64,000 nt of DNA from positions 186,001 through 250,000 of the forward strand of contig CAUYUJ010000015.1 of assembly GCA_963575745.1 (NCBI GenBank), written 5' to 3'. The translations under genes and the position numbers were made by a program. The stretch is from Prorocentrum cordatum. Taxonomy: Eukaryota. The notes under the pieces were generated by a model that made no database searches, was not told the origin of the DNA, and worked only from the letters and a program-made list of their open reading frames with translations. This document shows positions 9,441-64,000 of this stretch, piece after piece (within the stretch, counting starts at the first letter, position 1; every line of letters starts with the position of its first letter).

Positions 9441-9614
9441 ATCTCCTCTCCTCCTCCTCCTTTTCCTCCACCTCCCCCCCCTCCTCCATTCCTTTCCTTA
9501 TAATGAAATCCTCCCTGTCGCACCCCGAAGGTGTGCCAAGCGCGTCGCCTGAGACATCCTCACCGTGTATGATCCTGAAGCTGAAGAAGTTGCACCAGCT
9601 TCACTGATGGAGGG

Positions 9615-10190
9615 CAAGCCGCTTTCAAAATGTGGCTCTCGCCTTAGCGCCGCGCACACTCGTATTAAGATGTAGCAAGAGTTATCTGTATTGGGGGCGG
9701 GCCGTTTTCAAAATGTGGTTTTCGCTGTAGCGCCGCGCACACTCGTCTCAGAATTCTGCATGAGTTTCACGGATTGATGGCAGCTCCTTTTCAAAATGTG
9801 GCTGTCGCCTGAGCGCCGCGCACATTCGTTTTAAGAATGTGCAGAAGTTTCGCGGATTCGCATGGCTAGCGTACCACAAACAGCATTTTGGAACGATTCT
9901 GGATTGTCAGCAACAGTTGCGCTGATTCGCGGCGTTGACGTCCCGAGAGCATTTTTCTGGCACGATTCAGGATCGTCAAGAAGCAACAGTCATGTTGATT
10001 CGTGGCGTTGGGGTCCCAGAAAATGTTGTTCGGACACGCTTCAGCATCTTCATACGGTTGTCTCCCAACGGGGCATTTCCCCCGTGAAAATGAATCTCTT
10101 AGGGACCTATGAAGAGGGTTTGGAGGGAGGGTTTATTCCAGCATTTTTGATGAGTCTTGGGTTTGCACTGGTCCTCTCCTCGTCGCTTCG
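9615..10190 (+). repeat. Dispersed repeat family A, copy 1 (internal ~83-bp subrepeats)
   Basis: TTCAAAATGTGG..TCGC..AGCGCCGCGCACA at ~9624, 9707, 9790; 3' block ATGAAGAGGG...GAGGG..TTTATT shared with copies at ~28.1, 39.6 and 55.4 kb. Confidence 0.8.
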
Positions 10191-10899
10191 CTCCTCGCCT
10201 CCCCACTCATCCTTTGTCTCCTACTACGGCCGCTGCAGGCGTCGAGCGGCGCTGGGTGGCGTTGGGTGGCCATGGGTGGCCTGAGTGGCGAGGAGTGGCG
10301 CCAAATGATGCAGAGTGGCGTTGGGTGGCGTTGCGTGGCGCTGAGTAGCTCCTGGCAGTAGCGCTGGCTGGCGATGAGTGGCGCTGATTGGCGCTGCGTG
10401 GTGCGGTATTTTTTTCTGCCCGCGTGGCCGTCACGCTGCCATTTCACGCGAAACCTGCAAGGGCAATTCTAACATTGGAAGCCGGTTGAAGTGAAGGTGA
10501 GAAATCAATGTTGGCGTCCTCAGAAGAACCGGAGTTGACCATTCGATTAGTGACACCCCCCTTTGGGATCTGAGGATTCGCACCCTAAAATATGCAACAG
10601 AGTCCCATTCGATGACATATATATATATATATATACAGTTGTTCGGAGGCGCGCCGAGTTACCCAAATCAACTAACCTTTTTTCATTTATCATAACCCCT
10701 TCTCCTCGCCTGCTCGTTTCTTCATCCTGTGTGCCAAGCGTTTCACCATCATCAATATCACCAACGTCATCCTCCATCGTCCTTACGTTGACATGTGAAC
10801 TCAAGTTCGGAGCGACGAAACTGATCTTACTCCCTGAAGCTAACATCTCCTGGCTTACGTTGAAGGTCTTGCTTTCGGCGGACGTTAGGGCAGCATAAG

Positions 10900-12560
10900 A
10901 TGCACCAAGCGCGAGCACAAGTGCAAAGTGTGCGGGTCGTGTCGAGCACGTGGGCCCGCGATTCGCATGATCTCTTCGATTTCGAGGCCACAGATTTGCA
11001 CAGGAAGATTTTCACCGCCCTGAAGCCGGCGGTCTGCGTGCGCACTGGCACCGACGTCCAGATGGTGATCAGGGGCAACGATAGGGGGGATAGGCATAGG
11101 GGGGAGGATGCATCGACCCCCAATCGCCCATTGATCGCGGTTGGGCCCCGATAGCCCCAACCTGCCCAGGAAGGTGCGGATTCACTATTCGGAGGCCTAT
11201 CGCCGATCTATCGACGACGTATCGCCGATTCCAGGTCGATGCATCCCCCCCTGTGCCCATCCCCCCCTATCGTTGCCCCTCAGGTGAGTGAGCACGTGCC
11301 AGTAAACAACATGTACGACCCCCTTTTGCGGCTGGCCCAGAAGGACGGAGCCTTCTGGGTGGACCGGGCCCCCCCGTCGAGCGGCTCCAAGAAGCTCTGG
11401 CTGGTGGTCCGTGACATGCCCTCCGGGGCCCACCACCTCCAGGAGGGCGACGTCATCAAGCTCGGCCGCTTCAAGTTCCGCGTGCGGCAGCTCGTCGGCT
11501 CCGGCGAAGCGCAGCCAGAGTTGAAGCTTGACGATTCTAGCTCGGTGTGCCGCGTAAACCCAGGGGGCGAGACGGAGCTGGCGCAGACACTCTGTCGCAT
11601 CTGCTTGCTTGAAGGACCAGGTGAGGGCGATCCCCTCATCTCGCCGTGCCTTTGCAAGGGCTCCATCGAATACGTCCACCTCGGCTGCTTGCGGCACTGG
11701 ATCCGAGGGCGTTTGAACCTCTCAGACTCCACTGGCGGCTCCTACTTCTTCCGGCCTCTGCCGTGCGAGCTCTGCAAGGCTGTCTATCCGACCTACGTGC
11801 AGAACGATGCTGAGCCGCAGCCGATGCCGTTGGTGGAGGTGCCATGGACGAAGCCGCCCTTCATCGTTCTAGAGAACATGGTCCGCGACTCTCAGCAGCA
11901 CGCCTGCCGCGGTCTGCATGTTATCTCGCTGGCGGAGAAGGTGCTGAAGCTGGGCCGAGGCCACGAGAGCGACGTGCGCATCGCGGACGTGTCGATCTCC
12001 CGGTGCCACGCCATGATCCGATTCCAGCACGGCCATTTCCAGCTGGAGGACAACAACTCGAAGTTCGGCACCCTGGTCGCCATGAAGAAGCCCCGCCTCC
12101 TGGAGCCGGGCCAAGGCTCGGCGGCGCGCACAAGGAGGGAGCGCGGGCAGGGGGCGGCCTTGAAGAAGGTGGGGGGGGGGCCTTTCTCAGATGCCCCCCC
12201 GGCTTCTAGGAGGCCTTCTCTGAAGCTCTCGGGCCCGTTAAGAGAGGGCCACCGGTTTCGAAGAAGCCCCCCCTCCGCCGTCTTGGAGGGCCACCTTTCT
12301 CGCGCCGCCCCCCTTCCAGCGCGCCGCGAGAAGGCGTGTCCATCCAGATGGGCCGGACGGTGCTCTCCCTGTCGGCCCAGACCGACGTCGAGTCCCTCGA
12401 GGCGCCCACGCCGATTCGCCACGGCCCTTCCGGCGGGGCCGCGGACGAGCGCCAGCTCCGCCTGGCGCTCCTCAATCGTTTCAGTGGCGCGCGCCCCGAC
12501 GGCTGGACCACGGAGCACCCTGGCGATGCGGCCCAGCTGCCCGGCGAGGCCGACGAGTGA
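10900..12560 (+). CDS. FHA / RINGv (C4HC3) / FHA domain protein, putative E3 ligase; exons 10900-11064, 11284-12115, 12334-12560; 407 aa spliced
   Basis: Exons sum to 1224 nt with an open frame from ATG to TGA. RINGv CRICLLE..LISPCLCKGSIEYVHLGCLRHW..CELCK; FHA LKLGRGHESDVRIADVSISRCHA..DNNSKFGT; LQEGDVIKLGR. Splicing restores the FHA end (GQGVSIQMGRTVL). The N-terminal TWARDSHDLFDFE resembles alveolate FHA-RING proteins (from recall). Confidence 0.88.
11065..11283 (+). mobile_element. Introner-like intron 1 (GT-AG, 219 nt): ~50-bp TIRs, 5-bp TSD GGTGA
   Basis: Left end AGGGGCAACGATAGGGGGGAT..GGATGCATCGACC is the reverse complement of right end GGTCGATGCATCC..CCCCTATCGTTGCCCCT; GGTGA at 11064-11068 and 11283-11287. 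Confidence 0.88.
12116..12333 (+). mobile_element. Introner-like intron 2 (GC-AG, 218 nt): degenerate TIRs, TSD AAGG(C)
   Basis: AAGGC at 12113-12117 and 12331-12335; ends CTCGGCGGCGCGC / GCGCGCCGCGAG, with weaker inverted similarity extending ~70 bp inward. Confidence 0.78.
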
Positions 12561-15500
12561 GCTGGCTTTTGGCACCCGATCTCGAGCGCAGAATGCTGTG
12601 GCAGCATTCCCTGGAGCAGCTCGACTCGGGGCAGGCATCGCTCGCTTGCCGCTTTGGGAGGCAGCGTGTCCCAACGTGCCCTCCCCCTTCATGCACCACT
12701 TTGGTGGACTATTCATGTCGCTCTTCGGCCTCATGTTCTGATTCCGCCCTCTTGACTCCCTATATTTCGTTATCATCCGTATCATCCTCTTCACCCGCAT
12801 CTTTACTTCTCCGCCAGATCTGAGACCGACCATCTCACCACGCACAATCGTGCGCTGTATTGAGCGCCAGCTCGCATGTCTGGCATCAGATTGCTGGCAG
12901 GCATATTTGCCATGGTCTCTTAATGTAGGTTTCTAGCTAGACTCTCTCTGTTCCTGCTTCTCTTGCCCAGGGTTCGATTCAACATCGCTGAGAGGGCGCA
13001 CAACATCCTGGCGCATTTTGTTGCCATCCCTTCGCTGGAATAGAATCAGCAGTGGGCCACCCCAGGTCCCGCTGCCGCAGAACTCCCCGCGAGCTTGAAA
13101 GAGCCAGATCCTTGCATGTGCTTGCTCTTGTGGGCGCCGCGCAATGGGGGGGGGGACGATAAATGGGGGGCAGCGAGGGCTGCAGAAAAGGGGCCCCTCA
13201 GGGCACCTAAAGAAGCCCTCCAGGGCCCCCCAGAAAGGGCCTCTAGGTCCCGAGGAGTGCACCTTTCCTTCCCCCCCAGAGCGCCACGCAGCTCTTGCTC
13301 TGAAGGCTTCCCTGACGGGAATGCAGACTCGGGTTTCGTGGCCGCGCCCCGCTCTCTGCTCGCCTTCGGGCCCCTGGAGCGGAGGCGCGCGCCACGCCAT
13401 CCGACCGCCCCGGAGAAGGCAGCAGAGCCCGTCGCGCTGCCAGCAGCGTCTGTGCACGGCCAGCCTTGGGGGGCTCGCTGCGCCGACGTGCGCCAGCAGC
13501 TCATAGCTGCCCCGTTGCGCCCGTGCTGAAACGCAGCACGTGCCGTGCTCGAAATGTACGTGCTGACACGCTGCGTATCGGCTCCGCATGTCTTGGCATC
13601 GCTCGGACATGTGGATTTTTCCTTCGACCAGGACCGTCGAGGAGCATCCTTTATCATTTGGCGAAAAAACCACGCACGAAACCGAAAAAAACACGGGGAA
13701 TGGACGTCCGAGCGATGGCGAGATGTGTTGGTTCACACTTTGGCGAGCGCGTCGCGCCAAGCGTGCCTTTGCAGTCTGCGCCCCGTGTCGACACGCCACG
13801 TGCCGCGTGCTGCGCGTCGGGGCAGCTGCGGCCAGCGGTGGCAAGCAAAGCAGGGACGCGCAGTGTGCGCACCAGCTGGCTAAAGAGAAGCGCCAGCGGC
13901 GAGGGGCATGATGAATGTTTGACTCTCAGCCTCACTGGCCCATACGGAAGCGATGCCCGGGCGAGCTGTCGAAAGAGCAAAGTAGAGAAGCAGGATCGCC
14001 GTGGAACAGCAAGGGGTTGGCCATGAAACCGACGTTGGAACCAACTCGAGCACCTCTAACCATGTCTTAGGAGGAGGAGGAGGAGGAGGAGGCTTGGGAA
14101 CCTGTTGGAGACCTCTTGGAGCCAGCGTGGGGCTGCCGGCCCTTTTGGATGCATGCCAGTCCCTCTCTCGGGGCTCTCTTTGGGGCCCCGTTTGGGAAGC
14201 GTCGGGCCGGGAGAATCGGCCCGCGGCCCGGGCCCACATGGACGTCGCCGCCTTGATTCTGACGGCTTCTCTGACGCACTTTCTTTCTCCAGCAGCCTTG
14301 ACACTTGTGTCATGCTGCTGTGCATACAGTGTGTTTGTGGGGGGGAACCATCGGGCCTTCTTGGAGCCATTCTGGAGGCAATCGACCCAAGAAGGATAGT
14401 CCCTCATCAATTTGCGCTGCCCCTCTGGAGTCAGGCATTCGTGGGGTGCTCTTCTGGGCCCATCTTTTAGCTATCTTAGGCCTCGGATGTCCACTGGAAG
14501 CGAAAAGGCGAGAAGGCAAACATCACGAATCGTTGACAAACCCACGTTGTTCGACGATCGTGTCCTATCGAGGACATCGTTGAGAGGCTCCGTGGCTACC
14601 TCGGTTTGTCCTGTGGCGATCTTGGGGTCTATTGGAGGCTTGCTGGAGACCATCTTGAAGACCATATTGAATGAAGTGTAACCATGTTGCGCAGTCTTGG
14701 ATAACCATATTGGTGCTGTCTCAGGCCTTCTCGGACGCCCCCTTGCCTTGGGGAGCCACGGTCCAGATCCCGGGGGAGGGGGGCAAAAGGAGGGGTAGAC
14801 CCCTTCCCGAAGAGGAAGAGGGGGGTTGGAAGGCAGAACCCGCTAAGACACCTACGCACAGAGGTGGTATTCCGAGCAAGCATGGACACCCTCCTCTTTC
14901 ATTTTTAAGTTTACCTTCGCACTGATCTTTTTCAGACCTCAGACGCCGTGAATGTTCCATGACGCGGGTCCCCGGAGATCTCTGCCCTTTCTCTGGGGTT
15001 TACCTTTTTCACCTCGAGTTTTTCTTGGTTGCGGGACCCACAGAGGCCGAAATTAGGGACAAATGACCGTCCCGATTGTTTCAAGGCGTCGGAGGTCTGG
15101 GTCTGATCTTGTAGGGTCGACCTTCGGTCGACCACGGCGCCGTGTAGTGCAAATCATATGTTCCGCGTCCTCTGCCTCTGCGCAACTGCCAGCGGTCCCG
15201 CCAGGAACTCAGGGCGGTCACATATTTTGCCTTGTCAGCTCCTGGTAACGCCCAAGACCTCTGGCGATCCGAAGAAGTCGAGCCCGGTTTTTTTTTATAC
15301 TTTTCGGCTTTGTGGGTCTGGGGCCGTCAAAGCAAAAGTCAGGATGGCAAGGTGTTCCCCCAGAAGGGCCGTCGGAGGTCTGGGTCTGACTTCTCTTGCG
15401 CACCCCTCGCCCTCGCAGGGCAAGCCAAGGGACTTGGCTCGACCTGCGATGAGAACGGTGGGCGGATGCGCGCTTAGGCGACACGGAGACCTGAGGCTCG

Positions 15501-17037: not shown

Positions 17038-17059
17038 GCCGTAGCCGTTTTGGCTCAAG
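17038..17059 (+). other. Dinoflagellate spliced-leader (DinoSL) relic
   Basis: GCCGTAGCCGTTTTGGCTCAAG matches DCCGTAGCCATTTTGGCTCAAG at 21/22; ATG follows at 17060. Confidence 0.9.
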
Positions 17060-26769: not shown

Positions 26770-27315
26770 GGGATTCCTGAGGTTCCCCTTGGGGTTCCTT
26801 AGGGCGCCCTAGGGATTCTTGGGGATTCACCAGGGATTCCTAAGAAGCCCCGAGGGAATCCGAAAGATTCCCTGAGGACCCCGCAGGATCCCCGAAGGAT
26901 TCCGGAGGATTTCCGAAGGGATTCTTTCGGTGCGCCGAGAGATTCCTCCGGATTCCCGAGGGGCTCTTGAAGATTCCGCTTTGAATCCCAAGGATTCCGC
27001 AGGGATTCTCTTGGATTCCCGAGGGGGCCATAAGGATTCCCGAGGGTTTCTGGAGTCCGCGGGAATTCTTAACGACACGTTAGGGATTCCAAAGGATTCC
27101 TTAGGGATTCCTGACGATTCCCAAGGGATCCCTCAGGATTCCCTTAGGATTCTTGAGGAGCCCTTAAGGATTCCTAAGGATTCCCTAGGGATTCCTAGGG
27201 ATGCCCTCGGGATTCCTTAGGATTCCCTTGGGATTCTTGTGGATGCCCTAGGGATTTCTAAGGATTCCTTAGAAATTCCTTATGGATGCCCAAGGGATCC
27301 CCAAGGATTCCCAGA
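26770..27315. repeat. Degenerate ~11-bp minisatellite (GGGATTCCTTA-like)
   Basis: Recurrent ggattcc cores. Confidence 0.85.
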
Positions 27316-31700: not shown

Positions 31701-33229
31701 GAGAAACGCACGGGGTAGGGCGTTCAGATACGATAGTTCTGGATGGACAAACCAAACGGCATGAAAGACCAGGATACTACGACTGTTAGCACAAATTGTA
31801 AAGGAATCAATAAACATCAAAGTCATATTTCCAGAAGTTCGTAACCAAGAGCTGAGAGAAAGGGGAAAGTCAGGTAGCAAACCCGCCTTGAAGGGGGACC
31901 TCCTCCTCCTCCTCCTCCTCGTCCTCCTCCTCGTCCTCCTCCTCCTCCTCCTCGTCCTCCTCCTCCTCCTCCTCGCCCTCCCCCCAAAGATGCCCCGCAA
32001 AGAAACCCCCGCCCCGCTCCCATGCGGCCGACGACCCGCCCCCACGCCCAGGCTCGCCGCGCCGCCGCAGTGGCCGCCGCCGCTCGGCCTCGCGCCCACG
32101 CCCGCGCTCGCGCTCGCGGTCGCCAGCGCACCCGCCGGCGGCGCCAGCGCCGCCCTCTCCGGCGGCCCCGCCAGCCCCGCCCACGCCGCCAGCGCCGCCG
32201 ACGCCGCCGCGGGCAACGCCCAGCGAGCGGCCGCCCTGCCGCAGCAGCGCCCGCCGCAGGTCCCCGCCGTCATCGCCCTCGCGCGCGCGCCCGCGCTCGC
32301 GCTCGCCGCCGCGGCCGCCAGCGCCGCGGGGGTCGACCAGCGAGCTGCCGCCGCGCCCCGCAGAGGGCCAGCGTTCGCCGGCGCCGCCACTGCCGCCGGC
32401 GCCGCGGGCTTCGTCCCGCCCAGCGGAGGGCCAGCGTTCGCCGGCGCCGCCGCGGCCGCCGCGGGCGTCGTCTGGCGAGCGGCCGCCGCGCCCCGCGGAG
32501 GGCCAGCGTTCGCACAGGCCGGAACGGAAGAGGAGGAGGAGGAGGAGGAGGAGGAGGAGGAGGAGGAGGAGGAGGAGGAGGTTGAGGAGGAGGAGGGTGG
32601 GTCGCGGAATGTCGCCGCCGCCGCTCCGTTGTCTGCCTTGCCGATGCCTTGCTCACCCCGCGGCCGTCTTGCACAACGCTGTCGTGGACACCACAGACAC
32701 GTAGTCTTGCAGGGAAGTGCGCAGCAGCAGCAGCAGCAAGGCTGGCTGCGCGCAAACAGTGGTCGGCGCGAAGGGGACGGGCGGCATTGATTGTAACGAA
32801 GGCCGGGGGGGGCTTCTGTAAAGGAATGGGGCTTCTGAGAATTCCCCAGGCCCTTCTGAGAAGCCCCTTTCTTCTAAGAAGATCCCCGCTGACTTAGAAG
32901 GCGCTGCCCCCTTCGCGCCGCCCCCTTCTTCGCGCCGCCAAAAGACGGGCCATAATATAGCCCAGCACACCATTGATGATGCAATGGGCATTCCCCTCCC
33001 AGGCTCCATCGTCGTAAGGCACTGCTTGCGCTCCTGCGCACTACCCCCCACCCGTGTGATTCTCGTTAGAAAGTATGAGCTGCAGGATAGCAAACTGTGA
33101 AGAAGCTTCCAACAAGAGCTCGGGTTCGCAAAAAGAAACGCCTTCCATCTGGGTAGCTGTTGAAACTCATAGCTTCAGAAAGTATGATCAAAGCGAGGGG
33201 CCAAACGGTCATTCACTGGTCCTGGGAGC

Positions 33230-34870
33230 GTGGCTGAAGTTGGGTTCTGCGGTGCGGAGTGTTGTTGTACTGCTGCCACGTGTTTTCTGCTCTTATCCCA
33301 CCTCTTGCTACTCTCTCTCGTGCTCCATGCTTCTCCCTCCCCCATTGTTCCTTCCTTCTGTCCGTCTTCCCTTCTTTTTTCAGGGGTAGCACCAAATACG
33401 CGCGGCTGGCAAATAAGATATACCCCCAAGGGGGGAAGATCGAAGACGAAGAGGGCGGGTATCGCGAACAGATAAGAGCGAACAGTTTCGAAACTAATGT
33501 TGTTGCGTTATTGTTGGATTATGATTTCTAACGAATAATGCTTGTTGGTCCCCCTGCCCGGTGAACATTGTGTCTTTCAATGAAAGTGCTCCTCTCGGGC
33601 TCGCACCCTGCTTTTTATCAGGGAACGGATTCCTTATCAAATTGGGTGGCTCCCGGCTTTCAACACACATAACAACGACTATAATTTTAAGACTGTTCGG
33701 TCCAATCTGCTCGCGTCCCATTCAACACGTGTATCCCAAACCTTTTGATACCCGCCTTCTTTGTCTTCGACGTACACCCCTGGGGGTATATTGTTCTTAC
33801 CTGCCACTTGCATTTAGCGCAGCCCTTGAAACAGGGGAAGAGAGGACGGACGGAAGGAGGAGGGTGAAGGATGTAGCACGAGAGAAATTAGCAAAAGGGG
33901 GGCTAGGAACAGAAAACACTTGGCAGAACCAGACGGGCAGATCGGGTGGGCAGATCCAGGTGGGCGGGTCGGGAACGCGGGCCCACGCGGCCAGGTCGAT
34001 CAGGCCGGCTGTTGAAGCGTAAAGCTGCATGAGTCGCGAGGAAGCCTCGAACGATAGCGCGATGCCCAAGTAAGCCGTGAAAAAGGCCAGCGCGGGAGCG
34101 TGATTCCTGAGTCTCGAGAGCGCAGCGTCATAATACATTGCGATGAAGTCCCACGCGAGAGTGCGATTCCCGTTTAAATTTTGAGGGGGTCCCGCGCGAG
34201 AGCGCGATCTTGGAATACATCGAAAGGAAATACCAGGCGGGAGCCGTTGATGCTGTAGTTTGGAACCCAACAACGCAGCTTGCTGGCAACAAGGTTTGCC
34301 TGATAAAAACATGGTGCGAGCCCCGGAAGGAGCATGCTGATTAAACATGTTCAGTGGTCACCCGAAGGGGATATCGACGATAATTGATGAGAAATCAGAA
34401 TTCAGCGGCTCCCGCTTGATATATCCTGACAATGTACGTTTGGTTTCTTTGAGGATCGCGCTGTCGCTCGAACCTTCCTTGCCATTCATTTTCGATTGAC
34501 GCTTCAGCGACCCGCCCGCTCGACCCGGCCGTATGTGCCCGCCCGCCCTACTTGTCCGTTAGGGTCTGCCCGCCCGATCACCCGCTTGGTTTTGCCGCTA
34601 GTATTCCTGATCCGAAATCTTCACCTACAAATGTCTATCGCGTTCCATCCTTCCCCGTCCCCTTTCATCCTCCCTTCCTTCCCCCGTTTTAGCGGTTGCG
34701 CCAATTACGCGCGGCAGGTCATTGGGGAAGGTGCCCCCCGAAGGGGGGCACGATCGAAGACGAAGAGGGCGGGTATCGGGGGTCTTGGATACACGTGAGA
34801 CAAGTTCCACGCGAGCAGATGGGCGAACAGTATTAAAATGATTGTCGTTGATATTGTTGTCGTTTTCGTC
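33230..34870. repeat. Three copies of a ~300-370-bp element: + (33230-33520), - (33660-34022), + (34497-34870)
   Basis: GATCGAAGACGAAGAGGGCGGGTATCG at ~33438 and ~34752; its approximate reverse complement GATACCCGCCTTCTTTGTCTTCGA at ~33747. Confidence 0.75.
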
Positions 34871-34895: not shown

Positions 34896-34917
34896 TCCGT
34901 AGCCATTTAGGCTGAAG
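34896..34917 (+). other. Dinoflagellate spliced-leader relic
   Basis: TCCGTAGCCATTTAGGCTGAAG matches DinoSL at 20/22; ATG follows at 34918; preceded by a (CGT)n tract. Confidence 0.8.
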
Positions 34918-39921: not shown

Positions 39922-41184
39922 TCCCGCCTGCTCCTCCTTTTCTATTCCGCTGGCCAGGAGCCGGACACGGACGCGGCACGCCCGCGCGCCTTGGAGGATC
40001 CGCTGTGTGGCGTCGACGAGGTTGACGACGACGTCGACTACTGACGACGGTTTCCGAAGGTTTTCGGATTTGGGGAGGGGGGGCGGTGGGCTTCCCAGCA
40101 ATAGTGCCTCGCCGAGAGCCTTCCGAGAGGCTTCCAAACCTGTTCCGCAAGGTGCTCTCAATGGTGCCCTTGTGATAAAACGTGGTTTGCATGATGTTCG
40201 ACAGCGATGGCCCCGTCGATGTTGAGAAATGGAATATGGATGTAGAGTGGTACTCAATAGCGTCATGGATCCTGGCCCTGTCTTGGCATTCCGGCGCTAA
40301 AACCGGATGGTACTATATGAGATTGTCAGCCGATGCAAGATGTTGCAACATTGGCGATTGTGCTCAAATCATGGCCGTCAGTTTAAAAGAGACAATGTCG
40401 AAGTTACCTCCGGAATTTGAGGAGTTCATCAGTAAGCTGTAGCAGGTGATCCACTGCACGCAGTGTTGCTGATTGAGCGGAGCGGACGCTGACATTTGGC
40501 CGAATGGCCAAATATATCATGAACATTGTGCTGAGGCGCAGAAGTGCCTACATGCAATACATCCTCATCCTCCCCCACTCCCCCCTCCTGCGCCTGTCAT
40601 CCTCCTACACTTCATCCATTCCCATGTTGCTCCCCGGGGTCCTCCCCTCCTGCAATCCTGCTCCTCCCCTTCTCTTGCTCCTCATCCTCCTCAATTTCTC
40701 CCCCCTCCTTCCCTCTGTTCTACCTTTTAAGCACTTCTCTTCCTGTTTGTACCCGCATCCCTAAGACGTGCCATCCAGAGTTGTCAAGGCCTAGCACCTT
40801 GCTCGTGAGTCCTGGACAGCGCGCTACGCATGCAGGCTGGGCGCTGAAAGGGGATGGGCCGAAGGGGGTGTGCGGCCTTCTGAGAAGACAGAAGACTTCT
40901 TTGAAGCCCTCTTGTCTTCTGGTACGCCTCCTTCGAAGCCTCCGAGCCTTTCGAAAAGCACACCCCCTGTTGCGCGCCGTCACTAACCTTCTCTGTCCAC
41001 TGTTCGTCGGCGGCTCTTGAGCGCTCGATGGTTGCGCAGGCACGCGGGGGCGCCCCGGCTTGCTCCAGCCCCAGGAGCACGCGGCGAAGCCGCACCCGCA
41101 GCTTCCGGCGACGGCGACGATCGTTGCCCCGCGCTGCCAGGACAGTGCTTCGGGGGAATATCGGGATTCAGGCTGGGGCAGTGA

Positions 41185-45629: not shown

Positions 45630-48600
45630 TCGTGACTTTGGGAGTATGAGCCTTGGCCGCGGCAGCCGCGGCAACAGGATTCGACATGTTGAAACCTGGC
45701 CGCGGTGGGCCAGCCGTGCATGAGAAATTTGAGCGCAGCAACTGAACGGGCAACGGTGAACGAGACGAGGATGGCCTCAATCTCAGGCCATGGCAAGTTA
45801 CGAGCATCTCTGACAGTGACCGGAAGCTATGACGCAAGCCGTTGGCAGAAGGTTCCAGCTAGACATTCGGGGTGGAGCCGTTCCCGCATAGCAAGAGGCA
45901 CGATTCTTTGGATTCGACATCGCTGGTCGCTCTGGATGGAGATGGTCTGCTGGCGGAGGGAGTCGAGAGCAGCACGAGCAGCGGCAGACAAGCTCACCCT
46001 CGGAGCGCGGGGCGAAGTGATCCGACCATGTCGAAGCTCTTGCGGGAGACCGCTGGAGGCCGCAACCAGGGATTCGGCCAGAGCGGGTTGCTTCCAGAAG
46101 GATGGGCAGAAACGATGAAATGGTAGATTGGCAAGAGAAGCTTCATCCTGCTTCCTAGGAGCAGCCGCTTTCATCGGGGCTGGACAGAACCCCCAATAGT
46201 GACACGTCGATTAGTGAATTGTCCGTTTTCGGTTCTCGAGAGGGCGCCGCGGCCGTTATTTTCCAGGCTTGCGCCCGCCAGGTTTGGGCCCGAGGTCGTT
46301 TTCACTAAACCACGTTTTGCTAAAGGGAGGTCTGTCCATCCCCGATTTCAGCTGCTCAAGTACTTGTGGCCAGATGTCCAGCGTGGATCTGCCAACGCAG
46401 ATCAGAGAAGCGCGGCACGTGGACGCCAAGCAGTGGAACTTGGGGCCGCCCCACGGTCGAAAAGATAGCTGGCCTGATCGTGGGGGCGCACAGTGCGGGA
46501 TCGTTTAAAGGACGGGCGGTGGCACTCTCTCGGCGGGGGAGGTCGCGAGGGGGGGAGGGAACTGGGCGACGTAGGCTAAGACGCTGGCCACTCTTGAGTC
46601 ATTAAGGTGCGAGGCGATCCCAGCAGGAGCACCCAGAGAAGCAAGAAGGAACCCGCGGCCAACCCATTTAGCGAAAGGCTCTCCCCGTAGTCACCGAGGG
46701 CCCCGACCGAAGGCCTAAGCATTTCAATTGGTTTCGGAAGGTGGATTCAGTCCACGACGACACGTTCGCCTGAATCCAAGAGCCATGCTCTGCCGCCACG
46801 CTGTCCAAGAACTGCTCGCTGAGAGGGACCGCGACACACCTGCTGCGCTTTAGAATCAACGACGCCACATGTGTGGCGACACGAGATATGCTTGCCAAGA
46901 TTTTGAGGGCCGTGATCTGTCTGACGGCAGCCCCCACATCACCCGCGCAGGCACGAACGACCCCGAGTCCACGATCACCCATGCGCTGCTTCACGCCCTG
47001 GATGAATGGGTCAGCAGCGATTGCAAACAGATATCCAGAACCAGGGCGCCCCTGAATGATGCCACTCAGCACGTTGAAAAGAACGACCACCTGAGATGAG
47101 ACAGCTGCATAGCAGACGACGCCATGGTATATCTCAGCCACGAAGAACAATAACAGTGATGGTCGCGTGCAAGATCTCAGTGCCACGCGCAGCCTATCGT
47201 GAGCCATCCTGGGGAAAGCTGCGCCGCAGTCGTAGCTCGCCAGTGCCGGCGCGAGCGATATGGCCGAGGGGTCCGCCGAAAAAACCTCGCACAGCCGCCC
47301 AGCTCAACCGCGTTTTGGCCGAAGCTTCGCTCCAGGACAGAGCAGCGCGGATATCGCGCAGACATTGAGGGAGGGCGCGAGAGACGACGGAAGCCAATGG
47401 AGGCGATCAGCTTGTTATCTGGCGTCTGCAGACCTAGAGGGCGTAGACTGCTGGCAGGGCGGGCGCACTTTCCAGACCCGCTCTCATCTTCTTCAGCAGG
47501 TTCGGAAACGAAGACGCCTAGGAGGGAGTTGCATCCTAACAGCGCGTGGTCACCCAAGAGTTGCCACCAGCAGGCGCGGTCCACAATGTCGATTGAGCGA
47601 GGGGCAGCCTTCCAGGCCGAGTGCGGAATGCTGCCAGGTCCTGGGGCAGACTCGGAGACGCTCTGAAGCGCCCCCCGGAAGTCCCGGATCCTGGGCGGCC
47701 CCAAGTCGGGGGGGGATGTCGGGGGGGATCCGCTCGAGGTACTAGGCGGCTGCATCTGCGTCGATGTTCTCGCGATGGAACACCCCGCCCCAATGTTCCG
47801 ATACCCCATCCCTGATCTCTGTTTGTTTCGAAACGATGTGTTGGCCAATCCTCGCCCCCGAGAGGCGCGGCCCGCGGTCGAATGGGGCCCGCGGACTCGA
47901 TCGCCGAGATCAAGCTCGAAGCCGACGGCGGGCGCGCGCCAGCTTCGCGGGGGCCGACAGCTCGGACGTGCGACGCCTTTTTTCCTCTTGCTCACTCTCT
48001 GCGCCACCCAGCTGCAGGGGGTCGAGCAACGCGCAGAATTCGCCGCGCATGCGGATGGAGAAGCAGGAGATGGATAGGCCGAGGCCCCCAAACTCTTGCC
48101 AATCATCGCAATGTAGAAGCTTAGCATCGCCCTGGAAGTCTCGGCGCCAAACCGATCTAGCAATGGCACGCAGTAGTCGGATATTAGGTTTGGGGTCTTT
48201 CGCGTTCTCTCTGAAGAAACTGTCGCGAGCCCTTGGGGCACCCTCTTGCGCGACTCCTCTGCGCGCGCTGAACTCGAGGGTGGTTGGGGGGGGGGGGGCT
48301 GCCTTGCCAAGGTTGTCTTAGGCAGCGATGACACATTCACGGAAACGAGGGCGTTGGAACAGATGACGAGGAACAGGTTGAGAGTCAGGATCAGGAGGAG
48401 GGCGAAACAGAAGCACAGCTTGAAATGCAACATGATTTGAAATCCCTCTCCGTAAAAAAGCCTCAGGAGTCTCCATCGTGGAGGCCGCGATCGACATGCG
48501 CGGGATTTGCCAGCTCGGGTCCGAGAGAAAATTCCTGCCGATTTCCGAGGCATGAACGAAAGTCATGTCATTGCGCGCGTGGTCGCGCGGATCGATGCCG

Positions 48601-62090: not shown

Positions 62091-62190
62091 TGGGGTCCCG
62101 CGCAGTCTCCGTCCTGTGCGCGCTCGCACCGGCAGCTCGCCGAGTTCGGGCGCCCAAGCTGTCTCGCGCCGCGCGGCACCGCTCTTCGCG

Positions 62191-63745
62191 ATGGGCGACC
62201 TCGGCAGTTTTCTTGGCGCCTTGGACGGCGCGTCGGCGCACGAGGCCGGTTGGCTCGAAGCCACGGTGACCGCGCTCAAGGGCCAAGGTGTGGTGACGAT
62301 CGCCGATTTAGAGGGCGCGGCATTCGAGGGTTTCTCTTTTGCCGACAAGGAGCTCGACGCCGCGCAGAAGCGCCTCGTGCGCGCGGGGATCGCCGCGGCG
62401 AGCACGCCGGCGCCGGTGGCTGGGGGCTCGGCGGCGGCCGCCCCTCCAGCGCCCTCGGCGGCGGAGAACGCGGCCGCCCTCTTGGCCGCGCTCAAGACGG
62501 GCACCAGCGAGGCGCAAGCGATCTCGACGCGATCTCGGGCTCGCGTGGCCCCGCGCGGCGCGTTCGCAGGAAAAGCCGGCCCGCGTACTCTTGGGCCCTC
62601 TCCTCGGCAAGGCGTCGCTGGCCAACCTCCCGCAAGAGTTCTGGCCCAGGCGCGCTCGCGCGCGCGCGCGCTGGTTCTCGCATCTGGTCCCGTGCGCCGG
62701 TAGCTCCGACATGCTTGACGCGTTGAACGCGGAAGTCTTGAAGCGGCAGAAGAAGGAATCCAGCGAGGAAGCGCGCGTCTTCCTGTACTCGGACATCCGC
62801 AAGTGGGTGCCCGAGTGGGCCCGCTCGGGCCCTCGCGATTTCGAAGAGGAGGCTGACGGATCGTCCGGCGCCAGCAAGGACATTCGTGACCTCGCCAAGG
62901 CTCGTGCCGCGCGCGCGTTGCCTGGCCCGCGCGCGGGCGCTCGCCCCGCAGGAAGTGGCGGCGGTGAAGAAAGGGCCCGAGAAGAAGGCCTACTTAACCC
63001 TCTGCCAGTGGCAACTGGCTTGGAACCGGCGCCACCTGCCCGTCGCGCGCCCCCCCCGCGCGCCTGCCTGTTATCGCGCCGCGCGCGGCAGGTACATGGT
63101 CGCGCTGGTCGCCACGGGCCAGCTCACGTGGGCTGAGGTGCAGGCGCATCGCGACAACTGCTTGATGGTGGCGGTTCAGGCTGCGCGCGCGCGATTTCTC
63201 GTCGCTCTCTGTTCGCCGCGCGTTGCCGCGCAGGCGGCGGCCTCGAAGCGCCGCGTGCACCTCGGTATCGTGTACGACGAGGAGGCGCGGAAGGCGCGCC
63301 CCTGCGTTCATGCTTGCGCGGCGCCCTGCTTCTGTGCCGGCGCGCGGCAGCTATGGGCCGAGCAGCTACGCTCGGGGGACCCAGATTTCAAGCTGGGAAA
63401 GACGATCCTGCGGGTCGACCCGCGCGCCCTACAGCTGGCGCGGGATGCTTGCGACAAAGAAGACGGCGCCACCCACGCGACGGCGAGCGTCGCGCCGCGC
63501 GGATTCGCTTCTGCCACCTTTCTCCGCCGTTTCCGCGCGCGCAGGCACCGGCGGCCCGCGCTCCCGAGAAGGCGCGCGGGGCGGGCGGCGCCAGCCAGCC
63601 GTGGCGCGCCGCGCAGAGCTGGAGCAGCGGCTCCTGGGGCAGCGATTGGCCGAAGGGCCAGAAGCGCGAGCGCTCGTGGGGCAGCGATTGGAAGAAAAAG
63701 GACACGAGGAAGGCACGGACGCCGCCGCGCCCGGCGCAGCGCTGA
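62191..63745 (+). CDS. Spliced ~384-aa protein, Gag-like (possibly DIRS/Ngaro ORF1); exons 62191-62511, 62570-62649, 62704-62899, 62952-63028, 63092-63179, 63234-63293, 63351-63482, 63545-63745
   Basis: Seven GC..AG introns of 58, 54, 52, 63, 54, 57 and 62 nt join four ORF frames into one 1155-nt frame from ATG to TGA; motif W..AWNRY..A....W.....H...GIVYDEEARKLWA. Confidence 0.65.
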
Positions 63746-64000
63746 GCGCCGCCCTGGCAGGGCGCGCGCGAGCCCCCGTAGGGGTGGAGCCCCTTCAGCC
63801 GTCAGAACGGCTCGCGCGCAAAAGCCTGCCTCCGCCCGCGCCGGGTCGGGGCCGCGACCCGGGCGCGCCCGATAGTTCTACGCTTTGTCGCTAAAAATGG
63901 CCCCGTGCGCCGTGCGCAGGACCCCCACTCGCGTGCTGGGACATGCCGCGTGCGCTGTTGCCGCGGAGGCCGCTTCGCTTTCCGCGCCGCGCTGCGAGTG

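Follow-up and report, generated by a model that had tools for sequence, protein, structure and literature searches.

Dinoflagellate introns begin with GT, GC or GA, and GC donors are common and efficiently used (Roy et al., bioRxiv 10.1101/2020.10.14.339549). The usual splice context in these organisms is AG|G at both junctions, and a conserved GH is found just 3′ of the acceptors (Roy et al., bioRxiv 10.1101/2020.10.14.339549). For Polarella glacialis the same preprint describes 15 classes of introner-like elements (ILEs). In class 12, the acceptor is taken from the duplication, the donor comes either from the duplication or from its terminal G together with the C at the element's start, and most donors are GC. 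In the ILEs of Symbiodinium and in Polarella classes 4 and 5, the target-site duplication (TSD) is 4 nt long, CT stands at positions +5/+6, and the element itself ends in the acceptor AG (Roy et al., bioRxiv 10.1101/2020.10.14.339549; Gozashti et al. 2022, PMC9860276). Families that “co-opt both” splice sites, families that “carry 5-prime, co-opt 3-prime”, and the use of GC-rich donors are described by Gozashti et al. 2025 (PMC12130899), and Prorocentrum is absent from 12 of the 14 supplementary files of that study. For Prorocentrum cordatum itself, introner-type patterns have been reported in 2.4% of introns, in 8,934 genes (Dougan et al., bioRxiv 10.1101/2022.07.25.501386; PMC10666404). In P. 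cordatum and Amoebophrya, the criteria are an inverted repeat of 8-20 nt and a direct repeat of 3-5 nt near the intron ends (PMC10666404; Farhat et al., PMC7789003). The P. cordatum survey, in its available text, is pattern-based, gives neither families nor splice frames, and may list the gene described here. Published work on dinoflagellates already covers the mechanism, the splice frame, the GC donors, the coexistence of many Introner families and the occurrence of several of them within a single gene.

Here we describe an intron in a 64,000-nt stretch of P. cordatum DNA (the window), in which a forward-strand gene at 10900-12560 encodes RING-variant (PF12906) and FHA (PF00498) domains. The second intron of this gene works like an Introner and very likely is one. 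It shares inverted and direct repeats near its ends with the introners surveyed in P. cordatum and Amoebophrya. As in Polarella class 12, the acceptor of intron 2 would be drawn from the AGG of the duplication and, on a 4-nt boundary, the donor from its terminal G plus the C of the element; the likeness is by description only, and class 12 duplications are 5 nt long (NAGGH/NNAGG), whereas AAGG has 4 nt, although the longer repeat AAGGC does fit NAGGH. As in the Symbiodinium ILEs and Polarella classes 4 and 5, the element has, on its best boundaries, a 4-nt duplication and CT...AG inverted termini. Those elements, however, are spliced from a GHNN donor to the AG of the element, whereas the duplication here starts with AA and splicing is shifted by 3 nt; the register of the Symbiodinium type and of classes 4 and 5 would read AA..AG at this locus. 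The AGGH frame of Polarella classes 13 and 14 (a 4-nt duplication with AG|G) formally fits if the duplication is taken as AGGC, with termini that pair worse. The host gene has only two coding-region introns, both transposon-like and RNA-supported and with opposite recruitment of splice sites, which suits it as a teaching and test case of intron gain in P. cordatum; no concept is changed by it. The coordinates of all parts are collected in Table 1.

Table 1. Parts of the host gene, of the element in intron 2 and of its relatives, in window coordinates.
Feature	Position	Strand	Basis
Coding exon 1	10900..11064	+	ATG at 10900
Intron 1 (GT-AG, 219 nt); another TIR element, GGTGA direct repeat	11065..11283	+	219-nt skip in 4 of 4 runs
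Exon 2, RING-variant (PF12906) and FHA (PF00498) domains	11284..12115	+	domain matches
Left AAGG copy of the putative 4-nt target-site duplication; the intron would start at its last G	12113..12116	+	sequence
Intron 2 (218 nt, phase 1) of the RINGv-FHA gene; probable donor GC, acceptor AG	12116..12333	+	contig joints, register, protein identity
Non-coding MITE-like element, 214 nt, termini CTCG...CGAG, long imperfect hairpin	12117..12330	+	inverted ends, fold, shuffles
Left inverted-repeat arm, G-rich, core 12117-12129	12117..12181	+	self-match
Right inverted-repeat arm, C-rich, core 12319-12330	12266..12330	-	self-match
Terminal AG of the element, possible in-frame alternative acceptor (tandem GAG/AAG); 215-nt intron, one extra Glu	12329..12330	+	sequence, frame
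Right AAGG copy; AG at 12332-12333 is the probable acceptor, and exon 3 would begin with the last G	12331..12334	+	sequence
Coding exon 3 to TGA stop	12334..12560	+	blastp against homologues
Decayed full-length relative of the element, flanks AAGG and AAGA	32742..32941	+	nhmmer, shuffles, fold
Partial, more decayed relative; CATG on its left in the MAFFT register	40833..40987 (approx.)	+	nhmmer

The host gene and its spliced product

Once 11065-11283 and 12116-12333 are removed, the coding sequence is 1224 nt long and encodes 407 amino acids without an internal stop; removal of the second of these stretches gives ...LLEPGQGVSIQMGRTVL. The spliced protein is identical to CAK0788247.1 at 407 of 407 residues, so the public gene model already removes intron 2. 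Two of the three source labels of that record name Prorocentrum cordatum and one names Polarella glacialis; apart from this mixed label, the named source organisms among the best 120 of 662 homologues are all dinoflagellates. The G+C content of most of the window, 53-65%, is in line with the 59.7% of P. cordatum (Dougan et al., bioRxiv 10.1101/2022.07.25.501386).

Among the same best 120 of 662 homologues, exon 3 is matched by 103 in blastp and the tail that read-through would add is matched by none. The distance from the SKFGT motif to the QxGR motif points the same way. It is 23 residues in 111 of the 120, 22 in 3 and 24 in 2, and the pattern is absent from the remaining 4. An intron of 218 nt gives a spacing of 23 residues, an intron of 215 nt would give 24 and thus the spacing of 2 homologues as against 111, and read-through loses the motif altogether. 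Two further P. cordatum proteins are similar to the spliced one, CAK0858060.1 over 358 aligned residues and CAK0896035.1 over 334, and the sequencing runs described below contain two or more paralogues of the host gene.

We also considered whether the host gene might be a retrogene, on the strength of a candidate relic spliced leader at 10785-10805, 95 nt 5′ of the ATG. It matches at 14 of 21 bases, a score that 71 of 2000 shuffles and 8 of 254 window tiles (its own tile counted) also attain, and we set it aside as too weak. Farther upstream, at ~9600-9860, 3-4 tandem copies of a unit of ~85 nt (TTTTCAAAATGTGG...GCGCCGCGCACA) can be made out by eye.

Transcripts and the splice register

Transcripts were assessed in the assembled contigs of 4 runs (X1, X5, X12 and X13) out of 24 listed; these are contigs and not raw reads, and rare isoforms would drop out of them. 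Of these, X12 is recorded as RNA, X1 is guessed to be RNA, and no type is recorded for X5 and X13. The best of the listed runs contain 0.58-0.68 of the sampled words, the share that the absence of both introns would lead one to expect. An exact skip of 218 nt, joining 12112 to 12331, is found in the contigs of three of the four runs, at depths of 20.1 (X1), 158.9 (X5) and 6.28 (X12). By sliding, this joint is equivalent to the junction 12115/12334 that the initial annotation had put forward. Depth over 12201-12270 is zero in all four runs, and the contigs of the flanking exons differ from the window by 0-1 letters among those listed. A second 218-nt joint occurs in X1, X5 and X13, in the last of these as the sole type. 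We read it as belonging to paralogue transcripts because, in X1 and X5, it has the same depth as the variant letters, and these paralogue transcripts are without the insert. Both 218-nt joints carry the mark “between: not known” from the run tool. Introns of 215, 221 and 224 nt, all of them in frame, were considered as well, and none of the three is among the joints listed for the assembled contigs of the four runs. The 218-nt stretch is an intron, exactly removed from transcripts. The annotation's proposal of a 218-nt GC-AG intron whose removal restores the reading frame is borne out by the skip in three of four runs and by the identity with CAK0788247.1, with a qualification as to the register.

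The 218-nt skip can slide over five bases of direct repeat, so the contigs fix the length of the intron and not its register. The six equivalent registers have the ends AA..AG, AG..GA, GG..AA, GC..AG, CT..GG and TC..GC. We infer GC..AG, at 12116-12333, because it is the sole register of the six that combines a known dinoflagellate donor (GT, GC or GA) with an AG acceptor. The AG at the end of the element itself (12330) is likely passed over by the splicing machinery because it is followed by AA, while the AG|GC at 12333 has the downstream GH.

The element in intron 2 and its relatives

The sequence features on which the initial annotation had built its proposal are present. AAGG stands on both sides of the element and the direct repeat extends to AAGGC (12113-12117 and 12331-12335); the inverted ends, described there as CTCG(G), are also real, in that the element starts CTCGGCGGCGCGC and its right end, read on the other strand, is CTCGCGGCGCGC, with one indel between the two. 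The imperfect inverted match runs for ~63 nt at 73%, and its end-to-end score was equalled by 12, 0 and 0 of 2000 dinucleotide shuffles over 15, 30 and 65 nt, respectively. As RNA, the 218 nt fold at -134.3 kcal/mol into one long hairpin (z = -4.8), and none of 200 shuffles was as good. The lengths add up without a spare base: 214 + 4 = 218, that is, the intron consists of the element and one copy of the repeat. Since AG|G at both junctions is the splice consensus, only 1-2 bases of the repeat exceed that consensus, and the repeat alone is weak evidence of a duplication.

A search of the window by nhmmer with the element alone returned two relatives, one at 32745-32937 (E 4.3e-7, model positions 5-210) and the other at 40841-40956 (E 9.2e-5). 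A resemblance to 32760-32945 had been suggested from the sequence, and it extends over nearly the full length of the element. Aligned with the element over 233 columns, the copy at 32742 shows 143 identities, 38 mismatches and 52 gap columns (~61% identical). It has the best non-self score of 3187 windows, none of 500 local-composition block shuffles scored as high, and it folds alone with z = -4.65. No Pfam-A match above the curated cut-off was found around 32742-32941 in the stop-free forward-strand frames tested. Its left end reads AAG|GC and its right flank contains an AG (32943-32944), so this copy, if its site is transcribed, might be spliced as a GC-AG intron in the register of intron 2. 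On the MAFFT register, the first C of the element is common to the left ends of both relatives; for the copy at 40.8 kb, a register with AGG before CT was dropped when the alignment gave a better one with CATG. With two decayed relatives in a 64-kb window, the element is, judged by its sequence, part of a dispersed MITE-like repeat. As the arms are ~73% complementary and the relatives ~61% identical, the insertion is not necessarily recent. In one contig of X13, 255 unrelated letters are followed by sequence that matches from 12115 on, with GG at the left end of the copy, and depth is found at 12131-12200 in X5, X12 and X13; both observations are consistent with the left arm being present at other loci.

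No second intron of the element's family and no near-identical copy of it was found in the 64-kb window, in a metagenome pattern scan or in viral contigs, and neither a transposase nor an empty genomic allele was seen. Within the window, family candidates at ~13.1, 19.4, 20.9 and 62.9 kb were discarded, none of them reaching an nhmmer E of 0.4 with either query. The metagenome scan with both ends gave no blastn match to the interior of the element among the at least 120 loci listed; among the matches listed, the interior scored -69 at best (shuffled maximum -79, self score 378), and 4 of 142 had flanking repeats of at least 4 nt. We read these as chance GC-rich matches, and the single viral-contig match to the left-end pattern as chance too, unrelated beyond the pattern. 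A scan of the window for terminal inverted repeats (TIRs; 7-nt seeds, 40-nt arms, score of at least 34) found intron 1 and missed both the element and the 32742 copy, and is therefore insensitive to imperfect arms.

Comparison with intron 1

Intron 1 has strong inverted ends by the shuffle test. Its best boundaries are those of a 5-nt GGTGA duplication; the GT donor lies in the left copy, and the acceptor is a hybrid of an A of the element and a G of the target. In intron 2, on its own best boundaries, it is the donor that is hybrid, and the acceptor lies within the right copy of the duplication. The description of intron 2 as roughly the reverse of intron 1 thus holds on the best boundaries of each, and its placing of the acceptor in the right duplication and of the donor at the junction between left duplication and element holds on the 4-nt boundary. 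Aligned with each other, the two elements reach global scores of 7 and 3, and 329-425 of 500 block shuffles scored as high; by this comparison they are unrelated in sequence beyond composition. From the initial view that two different TIR families had given one gene its introns by two splice-site strategies, the unrelatedness of the elements and the opposite recruitment of splice sites stand; the family of intron 2 is a putative Introner family. Contigs of X5 and X13 contain variant copies of the intron 1 element (11081-11290) with shared differences at 11258-11259, suggesting that the family of intron 1 is present in other transcribed loci.

Origin of the intron

Intron 2 likely arose from a 214-nt non-autonomous DNA transposon (MITE). 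A transposase encoded elsewhere would have inserted the element into coding sequence and duplicated AAGG in doing so. The donor, AAG|GC, would then have been formed jointly by the final G of the left duplication and the first C of the element, while the AG inside the right duplication would have become the acceptor, AG|GC. By removing the element and 4 nt, the spliceosome would restore the original codons exactly.

Three other accounts have to be set against this one, of which the mildest is a variant within the transposon origin and no challenge to it. The same transposon might have other boundaries, either with a 5-nt duplication AAGGC (NAGGH) and an element at 12118-12330, or with AGGC as the duplication; no hybrid donor would be involved, and on the 5-nt reading both splice sites would be drawn entirely from the duplication. 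The direct repeat does span 5 nt, no indel is needed to bring the two arms into register on the 5-nt reading, and the 32742 copy is compatible with it, its repeats being AAGGC/AAGAC where the 4-nt reading has AAGG/AAGA; a repeat of 4-5 nt at this locus and AAGG/AAGA there is what the two full copies have to offer. The termini, however, pair best of all the boundary options tested when the duplication is AAGG (4 perfect terminal bases, score 14), as against AAGGC (none, score 10) or AGGC (2, score 10), and the C shared by the left ends of both window relatives also speaks for an element that begins with it. A 4-nt duplication is favoured over a 5-nt one on these grounds, and we regard the other boundaries as unlikely. 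Still less probable is an ordinary, older intron, whose ends would pair merely through the skew between a G-rich start and a C-rich end and whose repeat would follow from the AG|G consensus. The AG|GH at both junctions is indeed the dinoflagellate norm (Roy et al., bioRxiv 10.1101/2020.10.14.339549), the arms are imperfect, and no close copy was found in the searches above. Such an intron would nevertheless have to account for terminal pairing that beats 1988-2000 of 2000 shuffles, for a full-length relative 20 kb away that outscores all 500 shuffles preserving local composition and forms a fold by itself, and for the fact that the intron has no bases outside the element and the repeat.

That the insert is not spliced at all, and is either read through as a 500-aa ORF or marks this copy of the gene as a disrupted pseudogene, is scarcely credible. 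An open frame at 11155-12741 does span the insert, and read-through as the 500-aa ORF was the outcome that the initial annotation had set against its own proposal. The contigs skip the 218 nt and none of them covers 12201-12270, the flanking exon contigs are all but identical to the window, and the homologues match exon 3 and not the read-through tail.

If, then, intron 2 arose from a MITE that duplicated AAGG, one may speculate, at long odds, that the transposase of the family itself prefers an AAGG/NNGG target, a ready-made proto-splice site. Of the four left ends seen, two have AAGG, three have GG and one, that of the copy at 40833, has CATG, and the 32742 copy has no recognised gene around it. 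Were the preference real, insertions in the sense orientation would become scar-free GC-AG introns without selection picking the site, and the built-in terminal AG of the element would remain a silent tandem acceptor. Targeting of AGG proto-splice sites, if true, would also bear on whether the proto-splice bias reflects insertion preference or selection.

Other features of the window

Two near-perfect copies of the dinoflagellate spliced leader lie on the forward strand at 17039-17059 and 34897-34917 (20 and 19 of 21 bases, respectively), with an ATG directly after each. The stretches 3′ of the two copies are related, at 80% over the first 40 nt and with weak tblastx matches further on, and no Pfam match was found in any of the 29 stop-free forward-strand frames tested there. 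They may be decayed retroposed elements headed by a spliced leader. Another compact gene can be recognised by eye at ~62170-63750 on the forward strand, with several short (~50-70 nt), GC-rich candidate introns that have GC or GT donors; Pfam gave no match there in the 6 frames tested, and tandem repeats of ~60 nt lie upstream of it at ~61.4-62.0 kb. The TIR scan also returned a 368-nt inverted-repeat element at 33421-33788, with ends TACCCCCA...GGGGGTA and TA-rich flanks, whose left arm resembles, by eye, sequence near 34735-34770. More inverted-repeat or repeat-rich stretches came from the same scan at 46173-46346 and 26822-27222.
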